DNA of 64,000 nucleotides from Dictyostelium discoideum (lineage: Eukaryota). A program made the position numbers and the translations under genes. The stretch is from contig CM000153.2 of the NCBI GenBank assembly GCA_000004695.1, positions 2,720,001 to 2,784,000 on the forward strand. Reading direction: 5' to 3'. The notes under the pieces are model-generated. The model was not told the origin of the DNA. It searched no databases and worked only from the letters and a program-made list of their open reading frames with translations. This document shows positions 712-63,781 of this stretch, piece after piece. Within the stretch, counting starts at the first letter, position 1, and each line of letters starts with the position of its first letter.

Positions 712-1577
712 GTGGTGGTTTTAAAAGTATAACTGAAAGTATTTTAGCAAATGATAAAGGTAAACCAGATTATGGTTTAGCATTTAAACATTTCTATAAA
801 GCAGCAACAGTATCAAAGATGCCCGTTGCATTTGGAATGATGGGTGAATTAATTTATAAAGGTTTAGTAAAAGATTTCGATTATTATTTTAAAGGTGGTG
901 CTGCTGCTGCTTCCACTATATTAGATTCAAACGAAAAAAGATTATCAATGGCAAAGGTTTGTTTTGCGATTGCATCACAACTTGGATTAAAGTCATCGAC
1001 TCAACAATTGGCATTTTTATTTTTAAATGAAATGAAAAATGATAATGGAGCAATCGAGATATTAAAACGTTTAGCATTAAAACATAATGATATCAATGCA
1101 GTCACAACCATTGGTGCATTGATATTAGAGGATCATCCATCAACCGCTAAAGATCTATGGTTATATGCAAGTAAAATGGGTGATTCAAATGCTCAAACCA
1201 ATTTAGGTCGTTACTATTATAATCATAGTAAAAATCCAGACTATAATAATGCATTCTTACTTTGGAGTGCCGCTTCAAAGCATAACAATCCAGATGCTCA
1301 ATTTTATTTAGGTGGAATGTTTCATTCTGGTTTAGTTGTGGAAAAAGATATTAAAAAATCACTTAGACTCTATGAAATCTCTGCAAAGAATGGTAATTCA
1401 AATTCACAATTCCTCATTGGTAGAGCCTATATCGAAGGTGACGGTGTAGAAAAAAATTTAGAAGTTGGTTATAAATTCTTATCAAAATCAATCAATCAGG
1501 ATAATCAAACAGCTTTAAATTATTTAAATGATTTAGATGAAACTGAAAAAGAAAAATATTTAAATAAAAAAAAATAA
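33..1577 (+). CDS. Sel1-like repeat protein (514 aa) with an internal 32-Asn tract; the C-terminal ~200 aa carry tandem Sel1/TPR-like repeats (e.g. NLGRYYYNHSKNPDYNNAFLLWSAASKHNNPDAQFYLGGMFHSGLVVEKDIKKSLRLYEISAKNGNSNSQFLIGRAYIEGDGVEKN)
   Basis: Single uninterrupted ORF from the first ATG at 33. The repeated A-x-x-x-L/Y-G-x-x-Y consensus is typical of Sel1 repeats. The (AAT)32 microsatellite is in frame as poly-N. Confidence 0.55.
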
Positions 1578-8421: not shown

Positions 8422-11002
8422 CAAAAACATGAAATAAAAATAAAATAAAAGAAAATTAGAAAATAATAATTAATAATTATTCAAAATTAATATAATACAA
8501 ACATTTTCAGTTTTAAACTTTTCAACAATTTTTTTAAATTGTTGTTTTGAATGAGATTGTTGGAATTGAATATCAGAAGGTGGTAAAGTTAATAATAGTT
8601 CATCCATTTTTGTGTAGTATTCAATTAATGGTTTGAATTTGAGATCAATTAAAAAGTTTACATAGATTTCCAAATTTTCTTTAAAAATTGATTGAGAGGT
8701 ATCTTTATGTTGAGTTAGACAATTGATATTAAGTTCTTGTAATTTCAAATAAAAGAAATAATGATTCTCAAGTTTTGAAATGAATTTGTATTTTTTATCC
8801 TCTGGTAATTTCTCTACCAAACCATCCAACCAATTAAATAGCTCTAATATGATCTTCTTATAGGATGATTCAATTAAAAGAGTGCTTGAACCAGTGTCTG
8901 ATTCAGATTTATACTTTTGTAATTCTTTAACAAAGATATGAAAATTTCTAAAATGTGGTAAAACACCACATCTCTTTAAAGAGGTTTGAGTTGACTTAAT
9001 TGCATCAACTTGAACTTCTAAAAATTTGTTGAATAAAGTTTTTATACTTTTTTGTACCTCTGCCAAAATCTTTACAAAATATGAAGAATGATGAGAATCT
9101 TTACGTGAATGAGCGTCAATATATAACTCTGTTTCAAGTAACATTGTTAAAAGATAGAATGGATTAACTTGATCAGCTTTTTCAACCATATTTATTAATT
9201 CTGGTACAACTCCATTAAACATTGCACTTAATATTAAATCCAATGGTGCATCTGGTGATTCTTTAGGTGGTGGTGGTGGTGGTGGTGGTGGTGATGATTC
9301 TTCTGTTGATGATAATGAGCCATTGACTGCATTATTTGGAGATTTTGGACTATTTGAATCAATTGGTTTATCATTATCCAATGAAGGTGATGATGATGAA
9401 TCTGGATCTTTTTTTTTTTTATCTTTTTTATCTTTTTTATCTTTTTTATCTTTTTTATCTTTTTTACTTGATTTTTTATCTTTTCTATCCTTACCATCTT
9501 TATTACTACCACTACCACCACCACTACTATTTGAATGATGATTACGTTGACCAGCTAGTCTTGGTGGGTCTTGATATAAAAAGAAATCCATTACAAAATT
9601 TTGTTTTGTCATTATATAAATTTCTAAACAAGATAATGCATATTTAAATAATCTATTGATTTTACGTTTTTTAATACCATCTTTGCCACTACTACTACTA
9701 CTACTACTACTACTATTTTTAGATGGTGTACTTGTTGATGTATTGTTATTTAAACTATCAATTGATTTCTTTGATGAAGATGAAGAAGAAAAGAAATCAT
9801 TTTGATCCTTTGATTCTTTTTCTAATGACTGTTGAATAGTTGAAAAGAAAAGTTTAATATCACTTTCATAAATTCGACGAAATGCTTTAATATAAGAAAC
9901 AATCAATGGGATTAACTTTTCATGATCCATCTCTTTCAACCAATTAACCAATGGTTTAAATTTTCTTAAAAGGTCATAGTATTCCAAGTAATCTGGAAAC
10001 TTTTCTTCACCGGGTGTTTGAGATGTTGTTGTGATGACATGTTTACCAATTTCCTTATCAGTGGTTTTAAATATATTTTCAACCAATGCTGCGACCTTTC
10101 TTGCAAATGAGATTTTATAAGTTTCAAATACCTTTCTTTGATCTTTAACAGCCATCATATTATCCATACCACTCTTTAATTTGGTTGTTAATGCACGTTT
10201 TAAATCTTCAGCTGCTTCAATTGCCATCTTTAATCCCTTGGTATCGTTAAATTGTGGTGCTGTTAGTGTGGAAATTGTGTTGTCTGATAAAGTCATTAAC
10301 CCAATTAAATTATTCAATTCAGAGTATAATAACTTTTGATTTCTTGATACAATCTCCATCTTATTATTCTTTCCTTCAATATGTTCAATATATTTCTTCA
10401 TATCTTGTAATTGTTTATTATAATACTCAATCCATGCCGTCACACCTGTTAAATGTGTACCATCTTTATCACCTAATTGACTTATAACTTCATTAACTCC
10501 AACACCTGAATCTAAAACACCAACAATCATTTCCTTTAAAAAAAAAAAAAAAAAAAAAAAAAATTATTAATTATTAATTATTATAAAATAAAAATTTATT
10601 TTATTATATAATTTAACATACAGTTTCTAAAGTTGATAACGTTTTACCTAAACGTTCAGTTAAAATATCAACATCTTTTTCAAATGAGAGATAATTATTA
10701 ATAACATTTTCTAAATCTTCATCACCATCATTATTTCCCAAACTAGTTGCACTACTACTTAGAGTATTGTTTGATGGACCATTGCTTACATTATCATTCG
10801 ATTGTGATAGAAATGATGGGTACTCAAGTATTGGGATATTACTATGATGGTGATTTTCACTATCACTCTCTGAATGTGTGGTTTCTGATGGATCGTATTC
10901 ACTCTCACTATATTGACTATATCTATCACTAAATTGACCGCTATATCTATTATGTTGAATACCCACTCTACTAATACCACCTGAATATCCAAGATGATCC
11001 AT
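8155..11002 (-). CDS. Exocyst-complex-subunit-like protein (approx. 880 aa; possibly Sec3/EXOC1-like). 3-exon model join(11002..10622,10533..8503,8382..8155).
   Basis: Exon 1 (MDHLGY...LSFEKDVDILTERLGKTLSTLET) ends at a GTATGT donor. Exon 2 (E-MIVGVLDSGVGVNEV... with coiled-coil/helical-bundle segments and acidic/Ser/Lys-rich linkers) follows a TTTAAAG acceptor. After KFKTEN a weak GTTTGT donor, a roughly 120-nt intron containing a T-run of about 40 nt and an AAAAAG acceptor lead to a terminal exon IEKGLLKALGNVQKN...KNPNKH* that has no ATG of its own. The exocyst assignment rests on overall architecture and size, not on a checked alignment. Confidence 0.4.
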
Positions 11003-11133
11003 TATTTATTATTATTATTATTGTTTTAGTTTTGTGTTATATTAATATTAAAATTTATTAAAAACATTAATTAAAAAAAATATAAAATTTATGAATTTGT
11101 TTTTTTTTTTTTCTTTTTTTATATTAATTAATT

Positions 11134-11164
<31 letters not shown>

Positions 11165-11378
11165 TAAAAAAATAAAAACAATCGACTAACAAATTTTAAG
11201 TTGAAAGGAATAAATAAAAAAAAAAAAAATTTTTTTGGGTGGATTTTTGTATTTTTTTTTTTTTTGGTTTTATTTTTTTTATTTTTTTTTTTATTTTTTT
11301 AATTTAAATTTTTAAAAAAAAAAAAGTAAAAAAGTAAAAAAAACAAAAAAAAAAAAAATTTTAAGAAACAACACTACT

Positions 11379-15364
<3,986 letters not shown>

Positions 15365-15506
15365 AATATAAAAAAAAACTAAAAATAAAAATAAATTTAT
15401 AAAAATTAGGATCAACTCCTTTTTTTTATTTTTCTATCTATATATATATATATTTAAAAACCCAAATTATAATTTTATTTTTTATTTTTTTATTTTTTTA
15501 TAATTT

Positions 15507-16730
15507 TTATGACAATGATAATCTATTTAAAAGTGTTAAAACTTCAGAAGAACTTTCAACAACACCTCTTGCTTTTGTTGATTCTTCAAGATCACCACAA
15601 ACACGAATTGTAAATGATGGTACATTATAAAGTGCTTTAAACATATCTTCATCAGTTTTATCATCACCAATACAAAGTATGAAATCTGCATCAATCTTTT
15701 GAAGGATCATTTTTACTATTTCACCTTTATTGATACCTATTGGTTTAACTTCAATTGCTTTCTTTCCTGATAAAATATCCAATGGGTATTTATTTGCGAC
15801 TGAACGAAGTTGTGCAATCAATTCTTTAGCTTGGAATTGACCAAAGTCTGGATCAGCATTTCTATAATGCCATGTGATATTGACTTGTTTAGTTTCTGTC
15901 ATTGAACCTGGTGTTCTATCTTCAAAATCTTGCATTATTGATAAAACTGTGTCTTTCCATTGAACTTCTGCATTTGGACTTTCAGTCCATGGTTGATTTT
16001 CACCAGGTTGTCTTGTGAAAACGCCATGTTCACAAGACATACCAATTGGTAAATGACCTAACCACTTCTCCAATGACGAACGATCTCTTCCACTGATTAC
16101 GTAAACTTCATTTCTTCTATCTTCTGTTAGTTTACTTAAAACATCAATTAATTGCTTTGATGGCATTGCTTGACTTGGAAGACGAACCAATGGTGTTAAA
16201 GTACCATCATAATCCAAAAAGAAAACTCTAACCTTTGCTTTTTTATAGGAATCTTCAATCTCTTGGAAATTGGCCCTTGGTACACTTGTTTCCATAATCT
16301 CTTTTTGTGTTGCTTCATTTAAATCACATAAGAATCTTTTACCCCAAAAACTTGATGTGTTTGCCAAAACATAATTATAATTGATTTGATGTTTTAATTT
16401 TCTATCATGCATACTCATATTCAATGCTTCAATGATAGCTTCCATTATTTCTTTCTTTGAGAATGGATTAACGATTATTGAACCACCTAAACATCTTGCT
16501 GCACCTGCAAATTCACTTAATATCAATACACCAAAGTTATCCTTTTGACATACAACATATTCATGTGAAGTTAAATTCATACCATCTCTAATTGGTGTTA
16601 TTAATGCAATATCTGCCAATTTATATAATGCTGATAATTCTTCATATGATATTTTCTTATTAATATATTCAATTGGATTAAAACTTAATTTACCAAATTT
16701 ACCATTAATTCTACCAACCATTCTATAATA

Positions 16731-38635: not shown

Positions 38636-41135
<2,500 letters not shown>

Positions 41136-42876: not shown

Positions 42877-44154
42877 TTATTTTCTTTTAAAAGTTGATGA
42901 AGATTTTTTAGAAGTTTTTGCAGAAGGTTTTGAAGGAGTTTTTGTAACTTTCTTTTTTTTATCATTTGGATCTTCTGGTTTTTTAATTACAGTTATAAAA
43001 GAGTCCATACGAGATTGAACACTTGTATTTTTAAATTTCTTTAATTTTTCAATACCTTGAGCGACTCTAACATCAGAGAAACCCATTTCTTCAACTAAAA
43101 ATTTATTTAAACCTTCAACATCTGGATCTTTCCATTGAAAAGGTGGTAATTGATCAGCTGGAATAACATTTGGATTTTTAAATAATTCTCTCACCTCTGG
43201 GTATGGGAAAAACTCTGGTAATGGGTATTTGGATTTATCTAAATGTTTGATTACCTCCTCCAATGATTTATGTTTTTGAATTAACTCAATTGCTCTCTTT
43301 GGACCAATACCTTTGATACTATCACAATAATCACAACCTAAAAGAATGGAAAGATCAATAAACTCATCTTGAGTTAACCCTAAACCCTCCAATACTGATT
43401 GTAATTCAAATTCTAGAATTGGCATTTTCTTTGCTTCTGAAAAGAAAAGACGTCTAAGTAGTACTGTTGAACCTAATGTCAAAGAATCCATATCCTCTGA
43501 CCCGGTTGCCCATGCTTTACCCTTCTTTACAATCTCTGCACATTGCGCTTCTGCCTCACATGGTGCCTTTACAATTGGTACACCCATTAATGTTAAAAGT
43601 TTTATACAATCTTCATTTTGTTTACGTGTAACTGTAATAACACGTTTTGCAAATTTCTGAACCTCTTCATTGGTACCAACCTCTGTTGCTTCCTTTAAAT
43701 TCTCTTTTGCTTCTTTTCTTCTTGCTTGTCTTTTTGCTAATTCACCACTCTTTAATACTGGTGCACTACCATCAAATACATAAATTGGTTTAATACCTCT
43801 TGAAATTAATTTAATTGTACGATAAAACATACCTTGTAAATGACTAAATAAAAAAAAAAATAAAAAAATAAAAAATTTTAATATTTTATTATTTTATTAT
43901 TTTATTAATTATTAATTATTAATTATTAATTATTAATTATTATTTATTTTTATTTTATTTTTTTACCTTGTAGTTTCACCAAGTTGATTTGTTAATGCCG
44001 AAGAAACATCAGCATTCATTGCAATAAGAAATTGATATAAACTTGTTGATGCATCAATTGCAATAATTCTACCAAAATAGTTTTTTAATATATTTGTTTT
44101 AATTGAAGTTGGTGCATTATCTTCAATTAAATCTGTTAATTTTTTAATTCCCAT
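42877..44154 (-). CDS. fen1: Flap endonuclease 1 (FEN-1/RAD27 family). join(44154..43967,43843..42877).
   Basis: [47 protein letters not shown]...GETTS|[25 protein letters not shown]... is near-identical in motif order to human FEN1 (MGIQGLAKLIADVAP...[30 protein letters not shown]). The 123-nt intron is GTAAAA...TTTAG. The C-terminus is a basic [19 protein letters not shown] tail. Confidence 0.9.
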
Positions 44155-46074: not shown

Positions 46075-46554
46075 ATGTCAGATAACGAAGCTTTAGATGT
46101 CGAAGACTACGCCCAAGCCGGTTCAGGTGCTTCATTAACCTTCCCAATTCAATGTTCAGCATTAAGAAAGAACGGTTTCGTCGTCATTAAAGGTTTCCCA
46201 TGTAAGATTGTTGATATGTCAACTTCCAAAACCGGTAAACACGGTCACGCCAAAGTTAACATCACTGCTATCGATATCTTCACTGGTAAGAAATACGAAG
46301 AAATTTGCCCATCAACTCACAACATTGATGTACCAAATGTCAGCAGAAAGGAATACACCGTTATGGATGTTCAAGATGGTTACTTATCACTCTTGGATGC
46401 TGGTGGTGAAGTCAAAGAAGATCTTGCCCTCCCAGAAGATGATATTGGTAAAGAAATTACCCAAATGTTAAAAGAAGGTAAAGAGCCATTAGTTTCAGTC
46501 ATCTCTGCTTTAGGTAAAGAAGGTGTCGTCTCTGTTAAAGTCAGCAACAATTAA
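46075..46554 (+). CDS. eif5a: Eukaryotic translation initiation factor 5A (hypusine-containing), 159 aa, single exon
   Basis: Hypusine loop STSKTGKHGHAK. The full length aligns with eIF5A. Codon usage is markedly more G/C-ending (aac, ggt, gtc, ttc) than neighbouring genes, consistent with high expression. Confidence 0.95.
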   Translation: MSDNEALDVEDYAQAGSGASLTFPIQCSALRKNGFVVIKGFPCKIVDMSTSKTGKHGHAKVNITAIDIFTGKKYEEICPSTHNIDVPNVSRKEYTVMDVQDGYLSLLDAGGEVKEDLALPEDDIGKEITQMLKEGKEPLVSVISALGKEGVVSVKVSNN

Positions 46555-52763: not shown

Positions 52764-53233
52764 TTAATGGAAAAAAGAAAAGTTTGGTTGGAAATCCATA
52801 GTGTTGGTTGAATCTGGGAATGATTTTTGGGCATTTGGATTATTTGGATCGCTTGAGTGAAGTCCTGAGACTCTTCCTAGATTACCTAAATTACCAGCAT
52901 TATTTAAACTATTTGTAAGATTGTTGCCACCAGGTGCGGTTGTGGTTGCTGTTGTTGTATTACTATTGTTACTGGTGTTATTATTATTATTATTTTGATG
53001 ATTATTATTATTTGGATTATTATTATTATTTGAATTATTACCCATATTATTGTTGTTGGTATTTTGGTTATTGGCATTGTTATTATTGTTGTTGGTGTTA
53101 TTATTATTGTTATTAATATTATTATTATTATTATTGGTATTGTTGTTGGTATTATTGTTATTGTTGTTGGTATTATTGTTGGTGCTGTTGTTGTTGTTGT
53201 TGTTATTGTTGCTGCTGTTATTGTTATTGTTGC

Positions 53234-53265
<32 letters not shown>

Positions 53266-54260
53266 ATGTTGCTGTTATTATTATTATTATTATTATTATT
53301 GTTGCTGTTTAAAATACCATTACCAAGTGTATTATGAGTAGGAGAAGCAGATGGACTATCACCTTTTGCCTTTGGTGGTCTACCTCTCTTTTTAGGTGTA
53401 CCATCTGTGTTACTATCGGAAAATGATGTATTATTATAATCAGATTCATTCTCATCCTTTGGTTTCTTGGGTCTACCTCTCTTTTTATTGCTTCCTGGTT
53501 GTGGTACTGGTTTTGGTTGTGGATTACCTTCTTCATCCATCTTTGGTGGTCTACCTCTCTTTCTCTTTGGACCACTGGTATCTTTTGGTTCTGATGGTGG
53601 GTTTTTACGTGGACGACCTCTTGATCTCTTATCTGCTGAATTTGCTGATGATTGAGTTGGTGATGAATTAATACCCAAATTACTATTATTATTATTATTG
53701 TTGTTGTTACTATTATTATTATTATTATTAATATTGCTATTATTATTGTTATTGTTATTATTATTATTTATTGGTTGTGGTAATGATGATTGATTTTGAA
53801 TTGCTAATAAATATTAAATATTTAGTGTATATATATATATTAGAAAATATGAATATTAATATTTTAAATATATTATTTATTAATATTAGTAAAATTTATA
53901 ATTACCTAAACTTAAACCATTTAAATTGGTTCCATGCATTTGTGGTTGACCATTATTATTACCGCTATTGTTTCCATTATTACCACCTCCCATCATATTA
54001 TGACCCATTAATCCTAAACCATTTGGATTCATCAATGGTGGTGGAAGAGTTGTATGTAAATTATATTGTGGTTGTTGCATTTGTGGAGCTTGTTGATGCA
54101 AGTTTTGGATTGGTTGTTGCATTGTTTGCTGTGGTTGTTGTTGTTGTTGTTGTTGTTGTGGTTGTTGTTGTTGTTGTGGTTGTTGTTGTTGTTGTTGTTG
54201 CAATGACTGATTTTGAATTCCGTGAAGTTGTGAAAGATTTGGTAGAGTGGGTGTGCTCAT
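52764..54260 (-). CDS. AT-hook DNA-binding protein (approx. 465 aa), Q-rich N-terminus and N-rich centre. join(54260..53907,53803..52764).
   Basis: The ATG at 54260 (MSTPTLPNLSQLHGIQNQSLQQQQQQ...) leads to a GTAATT donor, a ~103-nt intron and a TATTAG acceptor. Exon 2 has five R/K-G-R-P AT-hook cores (KRSRGRPRKNP, KRKRGRPPK, KKRGRPKKPK, KKRGRPPKAK and others). Confidence 0.6.
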
Positions 54261-54962
54261 ATCTTTAAAAAATCGAGATTAAAAAAAAAAAAAAAAAAAG
54301 AAATTAGTATTTTTTTTTTTTTTTTTTTTAATATGATTTATTTGACTTTAATTATTTAATTTTTTTTTTATTTCAAATATTTAAAATGAAAAAAAAAAAA
54401 AAAAAATAAAATAAAAAATAAAAAAAAAAAAATAAAAATTTTATTTTTTTTTTTTTTTATTTTTTTTTTATTTTTTTGAAATTAAGATAATTTTAGAATG
54501 TTACGGTTTTTTGTGCGTCCGTTATATATTAAAAAATACGATGATCACCGCCTTTTAACGGCTATATGATTGTGTCATTGTTTATTTTTGTTATATTTTT
54601 TTTTTTTTTTTTTTTATGTTATTACTAAAACTATTATTATTATTTTTATTATTTTTATTATTTTTATTTTATATTTTTGTTTATTTTTCATTTTTTTTTT
54701 TGTTATGCCATGTCATTACTAAAATATTATTATTATTTTTTTTTTTTTTTTGTTTGTTTATTTTTTTTTTTTTTTGTTTGTTTGTTTATTTTTTTTTTTT
54801 TTTTTTTTTGGATTTTTTGAAAAAAAAAAAAAAAAAAAAAATTATTATTATTTATTTTTAATATTCTTTTTTTTTTTTTTTATATAAAATATATATATAA
54901 ATAAAGACGAAAAAAATTAAAAAAAAATTAAAAAAAAATTAAAAAAATAAACCACTAACCCT

Positions 54963-54997
<35 letters not shown>

Positions 54998-55512
54998 AGG
55001 GGAACTAAACTTTAGGAATAAGGATGGCTTAAATAAAAAAAAGTCAAATCCCTATACAAATACAACTTTGATTTATATTTATCGATGGATCTAAAAAAAT
55101 TATGATTTTGGGCCCTTTTTTTAAAATTTTTGGATTTTATGGGTATTAATTAATTTATTTTATTTTATTATTAATATTTTTATTTAAATAAAAAAAAAAA
55201 AAAAAAAATTTGAAAAAAATTAAAAAAAAAAAAATTAAAAAAAATTAAAAAAAAAATAATTTTAAAATTTCAAAAAAAAATAAAAAAATTTAAAAAAAAA
55301 AAAAAAAATTTCAAAAAAAAAAAAAATTTTTTACTAAATAAAAAAAAAAATAAAAAAAAATAAAAAAAAATAAAAAAAAAAATAAATATTAACAGCAAAA
55401 AAAGTTTCAGTTAAAAAATTCAAAAATTTTTTTTTTTTTTTACCGTGTGTTTTATTACTTTTTTTTTTTTGAACATTTATTAAAATATGAGTTTAGTTTT
55501 TTTTTTAAAAAA

Positions 55513-55551
<39 letters not shown>

Positions 55552-55625
55552 TAATTAATTAAATTGAGGATGATTAATAATTTTAATTCTATTTTTGAGA
55601 TTTTTAAATAATTTTTTTTTTTAGA

Positions 55626-55737
<112 letters not shown>

Positions 55738-55793
55738 TTTTTTTTATTTTTTTTATTATTTTTTTTTTATTATTTTTTTTTTGTCCATATATA

Positions 55794-55826
<33 letters not shown>

Positions 55827-55889
55827 TATTTTTTTGTTATTTAGTATCAGTTAGAGATTAATCTGAATTGAGTTGTAGTTGATTTTTTT

Positions 55890-56240
55890 TAAATTTCAAC
55901 TATCCGATGTATCTAACTTCATTGATTTTATACGCAGCCAAGTTTTCCCAACCTTTGTCATACTGACTCGACCTTTACATTTTCCGACCTTTCGGCAAGT
56001 TGATGAATTGGTTTCTTTGTCGTTTTTTAGTATGAGCTTAGACTATTTCTGTTACCTGACCATTACATTGTTTGTAATTTCCCCCCTAGAGATTTTCGCG
56101 TACTCAGACCTTCCCATATTATTCTCTCTTTATGATTTTAAAAATTTGTGAGAGATTCCTTTTTTTAATGATTGCCATTTGTTGAATATTACATTGGTTT
56201 CAAACCAATACCAAATAATCAAAATAAAATACCCCATTGA
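55890..56240 (-). ncRNA. Candidate RNase P RNA or RNase MRP RNA gene (minus strand); ends approximate
   Basis: A non-AT-rich island. The minus strand contains GGGAAGGUCUGAG (+ 56103..56115), a 13/13 match to the human RNase P RNA CR-I/P4 segment. It is preceded by a P3-like hairpin UCUCUC-N21-GAGAGA. It is followed by a GARAR-like GAAAA and a GNRA-capped hairpin GCC-GAAA-GGU (+ 55984..55996). A CR-V-like ACAGAAAUAGUCUAAGCUCAUA lies at + 56031..56052. An exact DUSE lies about 55-60 nt upstream of the presumed start. Confidence 0.45.
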
Positions 56241-56292
56241 CATTTGATTTTGTGATGACTTTTGTGGAAATTTTTCAAAAACGTAAAAAATT

Positions 56293-56300
56293 TTATGGGA
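56293..56300 (-). promoter_or_regulatory. DUSE TCCCATAA on the minus strand (the + strand reads TTATGGGA), upstream of the RNase P/MRP-like island
   Basis: Exact [AT]CCCA[CT]AA consensus. An A/T-rich TATA-like sequence lies 25-35 nt downstream on the minus strand. Confidence 0.55.
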
Positions 56301-56769
56301 ACAATCAATTTTTTTTTTTTTTTTTTACTAAAATAAAAAAAAATAAAAAAAATAAAAAAAATATTTTTTAAAAAAGTGTGGAGATGATTATGGTGAAGTT
56401 ATTTAACAGTTTTTATATTGGTTGGTGCAATGATAAGTGATTAAAAAGAATTTGGTAAAAAAGTTATTAATGAATCTTTTTTTTTCAAAATAAAAGAATA
56501 AAAAAAAAAAAAAAAAGAAATTAAATTTTTTTTGAATTGGAAAAAAAAGAAATTAAATAATTATTGAAATAATAAAAATAATAATAATAATAATAAAATT
56601 AAATAATAAAATTAATGTATATTTTTTTTTCCCTATTTAATCTTTGAAATATCAAATAAACAAACAAGTTTTTGTATATAAAATATCTATTTATCTATTG
56701 TTTTTATTATTTTCTTTTATTACCAAATCAATTTTATTTTTTTAATTTTTTTATTATTTTTTTATTTTA

Positions 56770-58139
56770 CAAGATATAATTTTGAATCTATAAATAAATT
56801 AATTGTTTTAAAATTATTTTATAAATGTAAATTTGAAAAAAAAGAATTAAAAAGAGTTTTTGAAAAATGCCCAATTGATGAATTAAAATTTAAAATTAAA
56901 GATTTAAAAAATTCATGTATTTCAATTATTTATTTAAATTTTAATGAATAAAATAATATTATATTTAAAAATGTAAATGAAATTAATGAATTATATAAAT
57001 CATTATTTTTATTAAAATCAGATAGAAATCAAATAATATTAGATTTTATTTATGATCAATATTCAAATAATAATAAAGATAATGAAAAATTTAATTTCAT
57101 TTTAAAATTATTGAAAATGTATTTTGAAAATTGTAATTCAAATCATGATGAATTCTATTCAATGTTATTAAATAATAGGCATTATTAATATAAAAGTAAT
57201 GAACCTAGAAGAAATCAATTATTTAAGAATTCAATTAAGTTTGGAAATTTTCAATTATTTAAAGTAATGTTTAAATTAATAAATTGTTTATTTGATTTTT
57301 ATGAACCCGTTTCAAATGATGGATTTAAACTAATGTTATTTCAATTTGAAAATAATTTAAATTATAAAATCGAATTTATTAAACAAGTTTGCCAATTGGT
57401 TAAAAATAATTCAAATTATTTAAATTTTATATTTAATCAAGTTTTATTGTATGATGATTTAGAGTTAATAGAATTAGGATATAACCAATTAGATAAGCCA
57501 ATGTTAAAAATTGAATTTATAAATCAAGATAATTATAGAGAAAGTACTAATAGTAATAAAAAAGAATGTGAAGCTGAATTTTATTTTATTAGGTCAGAAG
57601 GAGTGTTGGAATTTATTTTTAAAAATTATTTAAAAAATTGTAATAAAATATTACCAATTACCAATTTCATTTATAATGGCAGATTAGATTTAGTTGAAAA
57701 GTATAAATCATTATTATTATCATCATCATCATCACAAGAAATATCATATATTGAACCATCATTTAAATTAGATCCACCAATTTGTTATTCTCATAGACTT
57801 TATTCAATTACTATTGCAATGGAAGCAATGATTGGTTTTATAAATTCACCATCACTTTCAAATGGTTGTGGTGATAGTGATGATGGCGTAATTTTTAAAA
57901 ATGAACATTTCTTTGGTTTAAATAATTTAAAATTAATTTCTGATTTTATTTATTTAATTAATCATAAATTTACAAATCAAAAAGGACCATTCTATTTTAG
58001 TTTTTATGGTCACCCAAGACTAAAATTTTATATTAAAATTTTAATTGCAAGATGGATATATTTTAATAAACCAAATCATTTTGAAAGATTTGGATTTAAT
58101 ATTTTAGATTTATTAATTAAAAAAAATAAAATTTTATAA
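56770..58139 (+). pseudogene. Paralogue copy A of the downstream 1093-aa gene. The 5' part (56770..57266) is degenerate with in-frame stops. The 3' part is an intact ORF (57267..58139, 290 aa) that may be expressed as a truncated paralogue.
   Basis: FIFNQVLLYDDLELIELGYNQLDKPMLKIEFINQDN...FIRSEGVLEFIFKNYLKNCNKILPITNFIYNGRLDLVEKYKSLLL matches residues about 880-1000 of ORF 58336..61617. The upstream QIILDFIYDQYSNNNKDNEKFNFILKLLKMYFENC matches its KIFDFVYYQYNSDNKNKLKSILKLLGLFYGHSF region but is interrupted by TAA/TAG codons. Confidence 0.4.
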
Positions 58140-58335
58140 ATAAAATAAATAAAATAAAATAGAATAAATAAAAAAAAAAATAAAAAAAAATTAGGAAAAA
58201 AAAATCTATTTTAGCTCAAATACTTAGAAAAACATTTTATTTTTTTAATTTATATTTTTTTTTTTTTTTTTTTTTTTTAATTTTAGGTATTTAATTTTTT
58301 TTTTTTTTTTTTTTGTTTCTTTATTTCTGTTAAAA

Positions 58336-58690
58336 ATGGGTATTTCTAAGAGAGAAAAAGAATTATTAAATGTTACAGAAAAATTAAAAAAAGAAAATCA
58401 AGAATTAAAATCAAAACTTTCAACAAGAGAAAAATTAAATAAAAAAAACAATAATAATAAAGAGATTATCATAGAAGAAGAGGTTGAAAATGAAAATGAA
58501 AACGAAAATGGTAGTCAAAATATGGATTGTGGTTTAGAAAAAGAAAAAGATATAGATACAATAATGAAAGAATTAGAAACTAAAAAATATAAAACAATAG
58601 CAAAAATCGCAAAAACAAAGTATGGTGTTCAACAATTGGGTGGTAAAAAATTAGATATTTTAGAAAGAATTAGAGAATCTATTAAATTGA

Positions 58691-58743
<53 letters not shown>

Positions 58744-59650
58744 GAGAAGAATCAACAACAACAACAACAACAACAAAAACAACAACTAATACCAATGAGT
58801 GGTGGTGAAAGATTATTTTGGAAAATTTTTAGAAATAAATATTTAAATAGACAAATTATAAATAAATTATGTACAGGAAAACATTCATTAAGATATGATG
58901 AAGTTTTTAATGTTAGTCGCATGATTGAATGTAATGAAATTGAATTGTTAAAAGACAAAGTTTATAGAAATCAATATTTAACAGGTTTTGAAAAATCATT
59001 ATCAGATTTATTTTCAGCAATTAAAGATGATAAAAAATTCTATATAAGCTTTTTTAAATTTTATCCAAAGATATCATTATTCAGTATTGATTATACTGTT
59101 GGAAATATTTTAAAATCTGATTGTATTGGTGCATTAAAATCATTAGTTGAAGAAAATAATTATAAACCAACTACCGATAATTTTATTCAATCAATTAAAG
59201 ATGGTAGTTATAAAACATTTAAATATATGATGAATCTTTTTGAAAATTCAAATAATAATGAAAATAATAATAATAATAATAAAAATAATAGTAATAATAA
59301 CAATAAAAATAGTATAGAGAAATTTAAATTACCATTCACAGAAAATGAATTTTGGAAATCAATATTTGGATACTGTTTTATAAAACGTGCTAAATTCATT
59401 AACTTTATGATTAACAGATACCATATAAAACCAGCAGCTGTGACACCACTTAGATTTAAAAAAATTTCAAAGTTTTGTCCAATCCAAGAATCATTACTTA
59501 TTAAAGATTTAATAAATATATGTGAATCTATGATTCATTTAAAAGTAAAACCAAAAGGTTTTTATCAAAATATTATTTTTAAAAAATTAAAAAAGAAAGG
59601 TGATAGTAAAAGTAAAAGTAAAAATGATAGTAGTAGTGATAGTGATAGCG

Positions 59651-59699
<49 letters not shown>

Positions 59700-59710
59700 A
59701 AGCGAAAGCG

Positions 59711-59771
<61 letters not shown>

Positions 59772-61617
59772 AAATGAAAAAGAAAAAAAAGAAAAAAAAG
59801 AAAAAAAAGATAATGATAGTAGCAGTGGTAATAGTGATAGTGAAAGTGATAGTAGTGAAAGCGAAAGAGAAAAAGAATTTAAAGAAACAATTGAATCAAT
59901 AACTAAAATTGAAAGAAATCAAAAGATATTTGATTTTGTTTATTATCAATATAATAGTGATAATAAAAATAAATTAAAATCAATTTTAAAATTATTAGGA
60001 TTGTTTTATGGCCATAGTTTTTTTGAAGGAAATGAATTTTATTCATTGTTAGCAGGTGAAAAAGTAAATATATCACGTAAAACAAAACATTCAGATTTAT
60101 TATTGCATTCATTTAGATTTGGTGATATAGAATTGTTTAAAGAAGTTTCAAGATCAACTATTTGTTCAACTATTCGAAATGTAATTTTTGAAGATAAATC
60201 ATTTGTTGGAAATATACCAATTCTCTTTCAATTTCAAAATAAAAAAGAAAATCAAATTCAATTCATTAAAGACATTTGCAAATATCTTAATATTGTAACA
60301 CTCCAAAAGATATATGGAGATAATCATATTTACATTTTCTTTGGGCAAGTTTTATTATATGATGATTTAGAATTGATAGAATTAGCATATAATCAATTAA
60401 ATAAACCAATGTTAAAAATTGAACATATGAATGAAATAGGAATCACTGAAATTTCAACCAATTTTGGTGGTAATCCAAGTTTTCATACTGAATTTCATTT
60501 TATTAGATCAGAAAAAGTATTGGAATTTGTTTTTAATAATTGTTTAAAAAATAATAGTAAAGTATTGCCAATTACAGCATTTATTTATAATTGTAGATTG
60601 GATTTAGTTGAAAAGTATAAATCATTATTATTATCAGTACCAGCAGCACCACCATCGCCATTGCTTAAAAGAGATATAGTTTTCAAAGTACCACTTCCAC
60701 CAATATTAAATACTTGCCAATTCAATTCAATGGGTTTAGTATTGAAAACATTTATAGATTTCCTTCAATCACCTCTATCAAAAGGTTGTGGTGATAGTAA
60801 AGGTGTTGTTTACAAAAGTTCTCATATAGTTAGCTATAAAGGCGTCAATTCAGTATTGGATTTTACCTATCTTTACTCTATAACTCTAGATAGAAATTCT
60901 GGCAATGGTATACCCTTTCTACCAGGCAGAGGCAGTCTAAATTATTATTTTGTAGTTGCAGTTCAAAGATGGTTATTCTACAACAGAAATGTTTTACCAA
61001 ATAGTTATAATTTCACACTATTCTCTGAAAAATATTGTTATTTTGGTATTGGTTATTCTCATGCTTCAAAAAAACCAAAAGAAATTTTCAATACTATTGA
61101 AGATACTGAATGTAAAGGTTTCATTAATGATTTTATTAAATTAGGTTTACCAAATTTTCATTCGGCTACAACTGAAACAACAACACCAACAACACCAACA
61201 ACAACACCAACAACAACAACACCAACAAAAAAAACAACCATAACTGGTAACAATCCAGATGTAATTTTAAATAATGGCGATAAAATTTGTTTTGCAAATT
61301 ATCTTAGAGGTTTATTGGAAAAAGAAGCAACAAAGGGTCATATTAGATTATTTAAAGCTTTGGTTGATAATGGTTATAAATCAATATTTTCAAAAAGATC
61401 AAATGATTCAAAAAGTATTTTCGATCAAATTCAATTACACGAAATACTCTATCGTGCTTTAAGAAATAACCATTTACAATTATCTCTTTATCTTTTAGAG
61501 GATTGTAATATTTCAATCACTAATACCCAATTTTATTCAAATGTTTCTAAAAGATTTGAATATTCTGCAACTTTTTATGCTTTAAAAGATTTATTTAAAA
61601 ATAATGAAATAATTTAA
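58336..61617 (+). CDS. Lineage-specific hypothetical protein (1093 aa) with an N-terminal coiled coil, poly-T/poly-Q tracts and a ~35x Ser-Glu dipeptide repeat; founder of a local 3-copy tandem family
   Basis: Uninterrupted ORF from the ATG. The (AGTGAA)n hexanucleotide repeat at 59640..59790 encodes (SE)n. The C-terminal 600 aa are conserved in the flanking copies A and C. No known domain recognised. Confidence 0.55.
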
Positions 61618-61925
61618 ATTTTAAAAAATAAATAATAAAATAAATAATAAAATAAATAATAAAATAAATAAATAAAATACTATAAATAAGATTTAAAAAG
61701 TGATCAATTTTTTTTTTTTTATTTAAATTACAATTTTTTTAAATGTTAACATTATTTCTATTCTTAATGAATTGAACCTTGTTTACTCTATTCGTCTCAA
61801 ATTGAAATAATAATGGTATCACCAACTTTTGATTACTCTTCAAATTCTCTAAATAAAAACAACTTACAATTATAATCTAAGGCAGGTAGCAGCTCCCAAA
61901 TCTAAAGATTCATTTATAGATCAAA

Positions 61926-62460
61926 GTGAATTCTTTTATATTAAATCGATCAAAGTATTGGAGTTTATTTACTACAATTTCAAGATGGTCATTCTTTAAT
62001 AAACAACTTGACCAATTTCCAGATAATTATCATTGCCTTGGATTACTACCAACAAGAACATTAAAATTTCTAAATTTAAATTTAAATTTCAACACTATAA
62101 ATGGTTATGATGATTTCATTAATGATGTAATTAAAATTAAAATCAAAATAGACGAAAACAAAAATATAACCATTCAAAATACAAATACCGAGTTCATTAA
62201 ATGGTTTCATAATATTTTATTAGCTAAAATATATTTAGGAGATATTAGAATATTTAAATCAATTGTCGATAATGGATATAAATAATTATTCTCAAATGTA
62301 TCCACAAATAATTACCATCCGAATGGTATTTTCAATCAATTTCAAGTTCGTGAAATTTTACCGGATGCCTTAATGTATGACCACTTAGAGCTATCTTCAT
62401 ACCTTTTAAATTTTTTTGAAATATCAATTCCAACAGTGGGGTTGTCTTTGATTTTTTATT
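61926..62460 (+). pseudogene. Paralogue copy C: a decayed fragment corresponding to the C-terminal ~170 aa of the 58336..61617 gene
   Basis: ...[77 protein letters not shown] parallels ...ANYLRGLLEKEATKGHIRLFKALVDNGYKSIFSKRSNDSKSIFDQIQLHEILYRALRNNHLQLSLYLLEDCNISITNT but is broken by a stop codon. The N-terminal 2/3 of the gene is absent. Confidence 0.5.
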
Positions 62461-62464
62461 TTGG

Positions 62465-62499
<35 letters not shown>

Positions 62500-62522
62500 A
62501 ACAAAATTAAAAAGTGAAAATG

Positions 62523-62557
<35 letters not shown>

Positions 62558-62621
62558 ATTTTTATGAAATACTAAATTGTAAAATAACAACAAAAAGGTA
62601 ATATATATACACCTAATAATA

Positions 62622-63781
<1,160 letters not shown>

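Follow-up and report, generated by a model that had tools for sequence, protein, structure and literature searches.

How did a single intact gene come to lie between two broken relatives in the genome of Dictyostelium discoideum? The locus in question is found in a stretch of 64,000 nucleotides (nt) with a G+C content of about 20% (GenBank assembly GCA_000004695.1, contig CM000153.2, positions 2,720,001 to 2,784,000 of the forward strand), termed the window. The three pieces lie within a segment at ~56807-62441, termed the block, and are named A′, B and C′ in order. An initial annotation described them as a young tandem family of three copies, with one intact gene (B) flanked by two decaying copies of itself. 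Here, we present comparisons that point to a different history: with a probability of about 0.85, the block is a fairly recent, partial, dispersed and inverted intrachromosomal segmental duplicate of 5.6 kb, copied from an A-B-C cluster of paralogs ~42 kb away. This is ordinary genome turnover, not a new kind of system.

Several further loci were used for comparison. The donor locus (L002) and the locus of the copy (L007) are both found in GCA_054883475.1, an independent AX4-like assembly, and B′ denotes the 1161-amino acid (aa) B-type gene of the donor cluster. Family clusters L003 and L001 belong to GCA_054859385.1, from a wild strain of the D. discoideum clade, and L004 is the family locus of D. 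firmibasis. The sites orthologous to the insertion (L005 from a wild D. discoideum-clade strain, L006 from D. citrinum) were fetched using the neighbouring TBC/RabGAP gene as query and were compared with the window by blastn with low-complexity filtering. The proteins referred to are DDB_G0285087 (P0002, 734 aa) and DDB_G0285075 (P0004, 329 aa) of AX4; P0005, an 882-aa C-type protein from another D. discoideum-clade strain; and P0094, a distant family member. The assemblies probably originate from a study that reported ten new long-read Dictyostelium genomes, AX2 included (PMC12745789), the pairing of strains with accessions being our inference.

Segmental duplicates are recognized by a donor in the same genome that is highly similar in coding and non-coding DNA alike, and by an empty orthologous site whose flanks rejoin precisely; both are found here. 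Positions 56807-59877 of the window align with 10861-13953 of the donor locus at 94.4% identity (blastn), and positions 59581-61759 with 13862-16038 at 90.9%. This alignment of ~5 kb takes in coding DNA together with both intergenic spacers, while the flanks of the block have no blastn match in the donor locus. When only substitutions are counted, block and donor differ by 1.6-2.5%, plus several indels; the donor locus differs by 2.3-5.8% between two strains. On one chromosome of GCA_054883475.1 (CM142510.1), A and B′ occupy 2,708,873-2,714,784 of the plus strand and a gene encoding exactly the 1093-aa B protein occupies 2,756,547-2,759,828 of the minus strand, and so the duplication is real, inverted and ~42 kb from its source. 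One C-type remnant at the donor locus is identical to the AX4 protein DDB_G0285017, from which it follows that AX4 has the donor locus as well; AX4 proteins are in fact known from both places (DDB_G0285087 and DDB_G0285017 from the donor, DDB_G0285075 from the copy).

At the orthologous site of the wild strain, L005 6783-9807 corresponds to window 53679-56820 and L005 9804-10245 to window 62454-62862. The two flanks therefore adjoin across 56820/62454, and ~5.63 kb has been inserted in the window. The site in D. citrinum is likewise empty, and in both genomes it lies between the AT-hook-rich gene and the TBC/RabGAP gene. In the independent AX4-like assembly, 15.7 kb of the copy locus agree with the window at 99.36% identity, with the same arrangement and the same junctions, which confirms the insertion. 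Since the block is common to AX4 and this assembly, we infer that it predates laboratory culture; insertion would have taken place in the NC4 lineage (AX4 and the near-identical independent assembly), where the block now sits ~180 bp upstream of the start codon of the TBC/RabGAP gene. Coordinates of the block, its parts and its surroundings are collected in table 1.

Table 1. Features of the block, of gene B, of the related loci and of the neighbouring genes. Positions are those of the window unless a locus or amino acid (aa) range is given; C′ fragments are numbered on the 919-aa reference gene at L001 6609-9547.
Feature	Position	Strand	Basis or remark
Whole inserted block, probable segmental duplicate (A′, A-B spacer, B, B-C spacer, C′ mosaic, 4-nt filler)	56807..62441	+	blastn to donor L002; empty sites L005/L006; independent assembly L007
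Copy A′, putative 5′-truncated pseudogene copy of DDB_G0285087 codons 288-734	56808..58139	+	tblastn with P0002 aa 288-726; translation
AX4 model DDB_G0285075, 329 aa	57117-57163 + 57197-58139	+	splicing out 57164-57196 gives P0004 exactly
Residual open reading frame (ORF) in A′, 290 aa	57267-58139	+	ORF list
A-B intergenic spacer, copied, rich in A/T homopolymers	58140..58335	+	inside the continuous 94.4% alignment to L002
Gene B, intact single-exon ORF, 1093 aa	58336..61617	+	ORF list; duplicate of B′ (L002 12427-15912)
Coiled-coil helix; Thr17; Gln8 of B	aa 5-39; aa 120-136; aa 140-147		
Three-helix unit of B, helix-extended-helix (HeH)/SAP-like	aa 73-124 (58552-58707)	+	AlphaFold2 (AF2) model; weak profile matches
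Helical-repeat blocks of B	aa ~182-422, ~503-770, ~980-1088		AF2 model
Disordered acidic/basic low-complexity region; Thr/Pro linker of B	aa 422-501; aa ~945-970		
Ser-Glu run of B, (SE)21	aa 438-479 (59647..59772)	+	18 AGTGAA and 3 AGCGAA units
B-C intergenic spacer, copied	61618..61758	+	donor homology stops at 61758/61759, ~40 nt before the start of the donor C-type gene
C′ piece 1, inverted C-type fragment, nt 1484-1630 of reference	61759..61902	-	blastn 90.5%
C′ piece 2, C-type fragment, reference nt 1764-1840	61903..61979	+ (frame +2)	blastn 96.1%
C′ piece 3, C-type fragment, reference nt 2209-2668, ~aa 699-860 of P0005	61980..62437	+ (frame +3)	blastn 91.8%
Right junction	62438..62464	.	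GGGG filler 62438-62441, then original intergenic sequence beginning TTGTCTTTGA
C-type remnants at donor locus: DDB_G0285017 and neighbouring 216-aa model	L002 16022-17404		N-terminal ~400 codons of a C-type gene
Wild-strain run of C-type genes	L003 16613-22265 and L001 1-12649		GCA_054859385.1
FEN1 (flap endonuclease)	42877-43830	-	
eIF5A	46075-46554		
Two-exon AT-hook-rich gene (GRP/RGRP motifs, poly-Asn/poly-Gln)	52764-54260	-	501-aa ortholog in L005
TBC/RabGAP gene, conserved, three exons	62622-63781	+	start codon 62622; introns 62776-62963, 63367-63465

A young tandem triplication in place, in which A′ and C′ are degenerating copies of B, could claim that the three pieces are adjacent, lie on the same strand and are detectably homologous, and that the flanking pieces carry stops. 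The relatives on either side of B do exceed chance by far: by tblastn, aa 522-891 of B match 57009-58082 in one frame at 39% identity (E=1e-55), and aa 986-1061 match 62193-62429 at 44% with one stop (E=3e-11), with weak extra matches at 61760-61819 (minus) and 61922-61978. However, A′ is ~40% identical to B and 96% identical to DDB_G0285087 in amino acid sequence, and C′ is 35% identical to B and 74-92% identical to C-type genes (~75% to C-type proteins). Furthermore, the A-B-C order pre-existed at the donor locus, the block is absent from the orthologous site of relatives, and at least 46 diverged cluster representatives, spread over several species, belong to the family. In an identity matrix and in a tree built by neighbour joining, A, B and C come out as three old subfamilies that are 40-45% identical to each other at the amino acid level. 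Pairwise identities and the empty site already refute a triplication in place, which we consider barely credible. The flanking pieces are decaying partial copies, as originally proposed, but their parents are A-type and C-type genes rather than B; gene birth and death survives in spirit, and the history attached to it does not.

The direction of copying is given by the empty sites and by the donor locus, which holds a family cluster in the wild strain and one family gene, of 773 aa, in D. firmibasis. Three assemblies share a syntenic order of sideroflexin, three aldo-keto reductase genes, a 106-aa gene, the family genes and an acetyltransferase. In the neighbour-joining tree the one gene of D. 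firmibasis is placed with B, and D. purpureum lies outside; the parent genes A and B have a single exon. The cluster of the AX4-like assembly consists of A (734 aa, identical to DDB_G0285087), B′ (1161 aa) and C-type remnants. In GCA_054859385.1 it consists of A, B (1174 aa) and tandem C-type genes of 283, 566, 472, 901, 919 and 882 aa. Copy number of C-type genes thus varies strongly, from at least four full-length genes in the wild strain to remnants only in the AX4 lineage. Relative to P0005, the DDB_G0285017 remnant has nine in-frame stops; this protein and the neighbouring 216-aa model appear to be pseudogene fragments that have been annotated as hypothetical proteins.

The ends of the block bear on how it was made. 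Homology to the donor begins abruptly within gene A, at codon 288, and base-level comparison of window, L005 and donor finds 2 nt of microhomology (TT, 56807-56808) at this left junction. Between the three C′ fragments, the joins show 0-3 nt of microhomology. Copying would have started inside gene A at codon 288, passed through the A-B spacer and all of gene B, and finished in three short C-type fragments that form a mosaic, with one fragment in inverted orientation and a GGGG filler at the end. Such a combination of mosaic, microhomology and filler suggests break repair or replication template switching, either capture by microhomology-mediated or non-homologous end joining (MMEJ/NHEJ) or a process resembling microhomology-mediated break-induced replication (MMBIR). 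Truncation of both block ends, microhomology of 0-3 nt, a filler of 4 nt, an inverted internal piece and inversion relative to a donor 42 kb away all fit end-joining capture or template switching.

An artefact in the reference assembly is very unlikely, and so is movement of the block by a transposable element (TE) or by retroposition instead of break repair. The region is rich in repeats, a poly(A) tract lies beyond the right junction, and TTGTCTTTGA at that junction may be an imperfect target-site duplication, 6 bp long, of the TTGTTT found at the left junction (56803-56808), which in DNA this AT-rich is suggestive only. Against an artefact, the independent assembly has the same junctions, and the copy differs from its donor by ~2% and several indels. 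Against retroposition, the poly(A) tract (about 62459-62555) is already present in the empty site of L005. The ends of the block have no terminal repeats of the terminal inverted repeat (TIR) or long terminal repeat (LTR) type, as the long inverted matches are homopolymers only (poly-T at 58235-58335 against poly(A) at 62459-62555). A tRNA scan of the window found none, and there is thus no context for a tRNA-targeted retroelement. Transposition, retroposition and unequal crossing-over are disfavoured by the lack of such terminal repeats, of TE domains and of tRNA genes, and by the pre-existing poly(A) tract. Two specific candidates were rejected. A processed pseudogene or retrocopy is at odds with the composition of the block, which holds parts of three genes, two spacers and an internal fragment in inverted orientation and is not a processed transcript. 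A TE protein or cargo, a match that the initial annotation had said would overturn its claim, is at odds with the absence of TE Pfam domains from 15 family members, the absence of terminal repeats and the fixed syntenic position that the cluster has in D. discoideum as well as in D. firmibasis.

Copy A′ comprises 443 codons with no frameshift and matches P0002 aa 288-726 in one frame at 94% identity (tblastn). It contains exactly two premature stops (56949-56951 and 57186-57188), both TCA to TAA changes relative to the donor, and retains the natural stop (58137-58139). Divergence from the donor is 0.034 at synonymous sites (dS) and 0.015 at nonsynonymous sites (dN), and the changes on the A′ lineage number 13 nonsynonymous (N) to 4 synonymous (S), two nonsense changes among them. 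Because copying began at codon 288, A′ would have been born without a promoter, a start codon and the N-terminal 287 codons, which include the HeH unit; with the two nonsense mutations gained, we conclude that A′ is in all likelihood a pseudogene. The picture of a 5′ part with stops and a 3′ part with an open frame of 290 aa was accurate. Its extent was overstated, since A′ corresponds not to the C-terminal ~600 aa of B but to ~440 codons (B ~aa 470/522 to 891), A-type proteins being without the last ~190 aa of B.

Public annotations contain models for both flanking pieces (329, 421 and 122 aa), and it had been noted at the outset that A′ and C′ might be spliced genes. It is nevertheless quite unlikely that either is a functional spliced or truncated gene. 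The 290-aa frame of A′ is still open over the most conserved block of the family, A′ has no frameshift, and a short protein could start from an internal ATG. Conversely, DDB_G0285075 relies on a 33-nt GT..AG ‘intron’ (57164-57196) that takes out the stop at 57186-57188; this appears to be an annotation artefact that skips a point-mutated codon (TCA to TAA), because the intact parent has ordinary coding sequence here. As removal of these 33 nt reproduces P0004 exactly, the window is the AX4 reference sequence or equals it at this place. A length of 33 nt is far too short for a Dictyostelium intron. The multi-intron model of 421 aa in GCA_054883475.1 (L007 7699-9804, equivalent to window ~56034-58139) crosses the duplication junction and starts ~770 bp upstream of it, in unrelated intergenic DNA that has no gene call in the wild strain. 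This model is most likely an ab initio artefact; a chimeric A′ transcript created by the insertion is still conceivable. The loss of the N-terminal 287 codons and the ratio of 13 N to 4 S also stand against function, and C′, modelled as 122 aa in the same assembly, is a mosaic whose frame is broken and one of whose pieces is inverted.

Copy C′ had been described as a stop-interrupted piece starting at 61926; the stop exists, but the copy starts at 61759 and is made of three pieces. By tblastn, piece 1 matches P0005 aa 464-516 in frame -2 with one stop, piece 2 matches aa 561-586 at 77% identity, and piece 3 is 73-74% identical to P0005 over ~164-165 aa with one stop (an in-frame TAA at 62283-62285); the last ~25 codons of the gene are absent. 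With its broken frame, its inverted piece and this TAA, C′ is very probably a pseudogene. An origin of C′ and the donor C remnant as two halves of one broken gene was ruled out, as their content overlaps (reference nt 1533-1630).

Gene B is the only piece copied whole, and the claim of an uninterrupted 1093-aa ORF without a Pfam domain above threshold holds. Its repeats are shorter than first reported: the supposedly perfect (SE)35 is (SE)21, poly-Thr has 17 residues and not 18, and poly-Gln is present with eight. A looser array of period 6 surrounds the SE run (59595-59779, 30.7 units, 89% match), and the length of the run varies between paralogs and strains in an alignment of B, L002 and L003. 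As in other simple-sequence-rich Dictyostelium proteins, the poly-Thr, poly-Gln, poly-Asn and (SE)n tracts of the B family are encoded by near-perfect tri- or hexanucleotide repeats and vary in length between copies; the SE tract of B is typical of such repeats and in no way distinctive. The 2005 genome paper of Eichinger et al. is said to describe an abundance of proteins rich in simple-sequence repeats as a general property of the Dictyostelium genome. B and B′ share 95% amino acid identity, the former with a longer SE run and a deletion of 73 codons in the acidic/basic low-complexity region. After duplication, B would have dropped 73 low-complexity codons while its SE run grew to 21 units. 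The A-B spacer is presumed to be the promoter of B, duplicated along with it.

The constraint on B was assessed with 2-3 sequences per clade. Between B and B′, dS is 0.016, dN is 0.020 and their ratio (omega) is 1.23 (Nei-Gojobori). When the wild-strain ortholog is used to polarize codon changes, 26 N and 3 S fall on the B lineage and 9 N and 1 S on the B′ lineage. The N:S ratio of B does not differ from neutral (P=0.18) and is above that expected from the between-strain omega of B-type genes, which is 0.62 (P=0.026). B is without detectable purifying selection. The count of 26 N to 3 S indicates that it is drifting as a redundant copy or diversifying, and rather than the candidate novel protein it was taken for, B is a redundant duplicate, drifting or diversifying, within an already annotated family of uncharacterized proteins.

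Dense nonsynonymous point substitutions specific to B are found at aa ~825-880 (window 60800-60990), for example FTN to YKS and NKPYLPNIDCP to GIPFLPGRGSL. This stretch sits in a low-confidence loop of the structural model, and B′ and the wild-strain ortholog agree there. A compensated frameshift or a conversion tract from a paralog was rejected as the source of the cluster, as the DNA alignment contains point substitutions only and the variants match no known paralog.

A less probable account, to which we would give perhaps a minority share of belief, is that B functions as a new paralog, subject to positive or diversifying selection, in a fast-evolving, copy-number-variable family related to conflict. 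The omega of 1.23, the 26 N to 3 S, the tight cluster of substitutions and the between-strain omega of 0.62 agree with this, as do the strong variation in C-type copy number between strains and the preservation of the open frame with its upstream spacer. Conversely, N:S is not significantly above neutral, the comparison has few sequences, and the 73-codon deletion and the change in repeat length are equally expected under relaxed constraint.

Several points weigh against a recent duplicate that has since drifted. The putative target-site duplication is imperfect. C′ overlaps in content with the C remnant of the donor locus and is only 87% identical to it, which means either that the donor no longer has the C copy used as source or that later deletions, and not the copying event, produced the mosaic. 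An omega of about 1-2 on B fits positive selection as well as drift, and with ~30 lineage-specific changes the chance survival of an open frame is not improbable, so that the intactness of B is no proof of function. Lastly, the proteins of B (58336-61617) and of the B-type genes at L002 12427-15912 and L003 12538-16062 are absent from the protein collection, by exact look-up and among the homology matches. The neighbours of these three genes in the same assemblies are present in that collection, and B was found via the contig index only.

The family to which A, B and C belong is narrowly distributed. A homology search with the C-terminal 594 aa of B returned five proteins, all from Dictyostelium and including P0002, P0004 and P0005, and a profile search of 1.84 billion cluster representatives returned 46 proteins at E≤1e-3, of which 26 reach E≤1e-10. 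Ten relatives were looked up, the distant AX4 paralog DDB_G0268918 among them; all are listed as hypothetical proteins and come from D. discoideum, D. cf. discoideum, D. firmibasis or D. purpureum. As first suggested, the family is lineage-specific: named relatives all belong to group-4 Dictyostelium, to which the family appears to be confined. A Pfam scan of B, of the 290-aa ORF and of 14 relatives gave nothing above threshold and only low-complexity noise below it (DUF3439, Trypan_PARP, DDHD). In the literature searched, no paper was found that names DDB_G0285087, DDB_G0285075, DDB_G0285017 or DDB_G0268918.

DDB_G0285087 carries the UniProt label ‘SAP domain-containing’. Profile matches to this class fall below the gathering score: Rho_N (PF07498) reaches 18.1 bits in the distant member P0094 (cut-off 24.9, E=0.0027) and SAP (PF02037) reaches 14.1 bits on a fragment of P0002 (cut-off 23.9, E=0.038), with no match of the SAP profile to B's own fragment. 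Compared with the PDB, the family profile finds Rho 3l0o_A, residues 4-47, at E=0.01. SAP and HeH proteins (PF02037, PF07498; DEK and the N-terminus of bacterial Rho) share with the B family an N-terminal unit of ~45 residues whose second helix reads G-x-K-K-x-x-I-L-x-R-I, but the rest of the B protein has nothing in common with them, and the scores stay below curated cut-offs.

The full AF2 model of B, made with a 31-sequence alignment, is all-alpha, with a predicted local distance difference test score (pLDDT) of 68.8 and a predicted template modelling score (pTM) of 0.60. It has a long N-terminal helix, a confident three-helix unit with a confident helix-loop-helix at aa 85-124, and helical-hairpin blocks at ~190-420, ~500-770 and ~980-1090, between which lie disordered simple-sequence linkers. 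Modelled alone, aa 182-422 reach a pLDDT of 88.2 and a pTM of 0.84. A Foldseek search of the PDB gave nothing significant for the full model; its likeness to the alpha-solenoids of CRM1 and importin was set aside as generic (TM ~0.12) and uninformative. For aa 182-422 the same search went no lower than E=0.07 (designed PPRs), with ankyrin at E~2. Alignment of the family profile with an ankyrin consensus (hhalign) scored a probability of 3.8%, and no Pfam Ank match was found at E≤5. In sequence, the B family differs from the alpha-alpha hairpin scaffolds of ankyrin, TPR, PPR and HEAT type, as the TPLH-type signature and the Pfam Ank match are absent. From these weak similarities, B may be built of an N-terminal coiled coil, a SAP/Rho_N-like HeH unit and three ankyrin-like helical hairpin blocks; membership in any named family is not established. 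Tentatively, and with much less certainty than the genomic history, B might act as a scaffold in the nucleus, where it would use its HeH unit to tether partner proteins to AT-rich DNA or chromatin.

More speculative, and improbable, is that the A/B/C cluster encodes fast-diversifying, copy-number-variable nuclear HeH-plus-ankyrin-like proteins engaged in genetic conflict, with the extra B of the NC4 lineage adaptive and positively selected. Room for this is left by the excess of N over S changes, by the substitutions clustered at aa 825-880 and by the presence of at least four C-type genes in one strain against only remnants in another. The opponent could be selfish DNA (DIRS, other repeats or nuclear plasmids); alternatively, mating or strain incompatibility may be at stake.

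The AT-hook-rich gene borders the insertion site on its upstream side and is transcribed divergently from the TBC/RabGAP gene; the distance between the two is 2.6 kb in L005. Of this original upstream region of 2.6 kb, the TBC/RabGAP gene of AX4 retains a short part that is mostly poly(A). Order and spacing from eIF5A to the TBC/RabGAP gene are unchanged in the wild strain, save for the 5.6-kb insertion. Elsewhere, the window carries ordinary Dictyostelium genes of the housekeeping kind, such as FEN1 and eIF5A, and an ORF at 39879-41135 looks VPS9-like by eye.

Duplications are familiar in this organism. Those of laboratory stocks are, according to Bloomfield et al. (2008, PMC2643946), at least 15 kb long, essentially identical to their source and born in the laboratory; a duplication on chromosome 2 of AX4 is also on record (PMC12745789). 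Like such duplications, the block carries genes and spacers copied within the genome and is present or absent by strain. Unlike them, it is 5.6 kb long, ~2% diverged, inverted, dispersed to a site 42 kb away, truncated at both ends and mosaic at one. The B family also resembles the tgr families (PMC12745789), which are likewise lineage-restricted and clustered, with many pseudogenes and with strain-specific expansions and losses. Tgr proteins, however, are found at the cell surface, whereas the B family is unrelated, all-alpha and equipped with a putative DNA-binding HeH unit; its model has no signal peptide or transmembrane signature.

None of this is surprising to a specialist, and the value of the locus is mostly practical. 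At least three annotated AX4 ‘genes’ would be pseudogene fragments (DDB_G0285075, DDB_G0285017 and counterpart models in newer assemblies), to be re-annotated and dropped from counts of orphan genes. AX4 and its near relative carry two B-type genes that are 95% identical, and knock-outs, RNA-seq mapping and proteomics must account for both. A small, dispersed, inverted duplication is cleanly resolved at this locus, from donor and empty site to microhomology, filler and mosaic tail, and the locus can serve studies of how gene copies originate in very AT-rich genomes. A family has been defined that appears specific to group-4 Dictyostelium, with 46 representatives at E≤1e-3, a putative HeH unit and ankyrin-like repeats. 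Regulation of the TBC/RabGAP gene may differ from that in strains without the block, and insertion upstream of this gene may have changed its regulation in the standard laboratory lineage.

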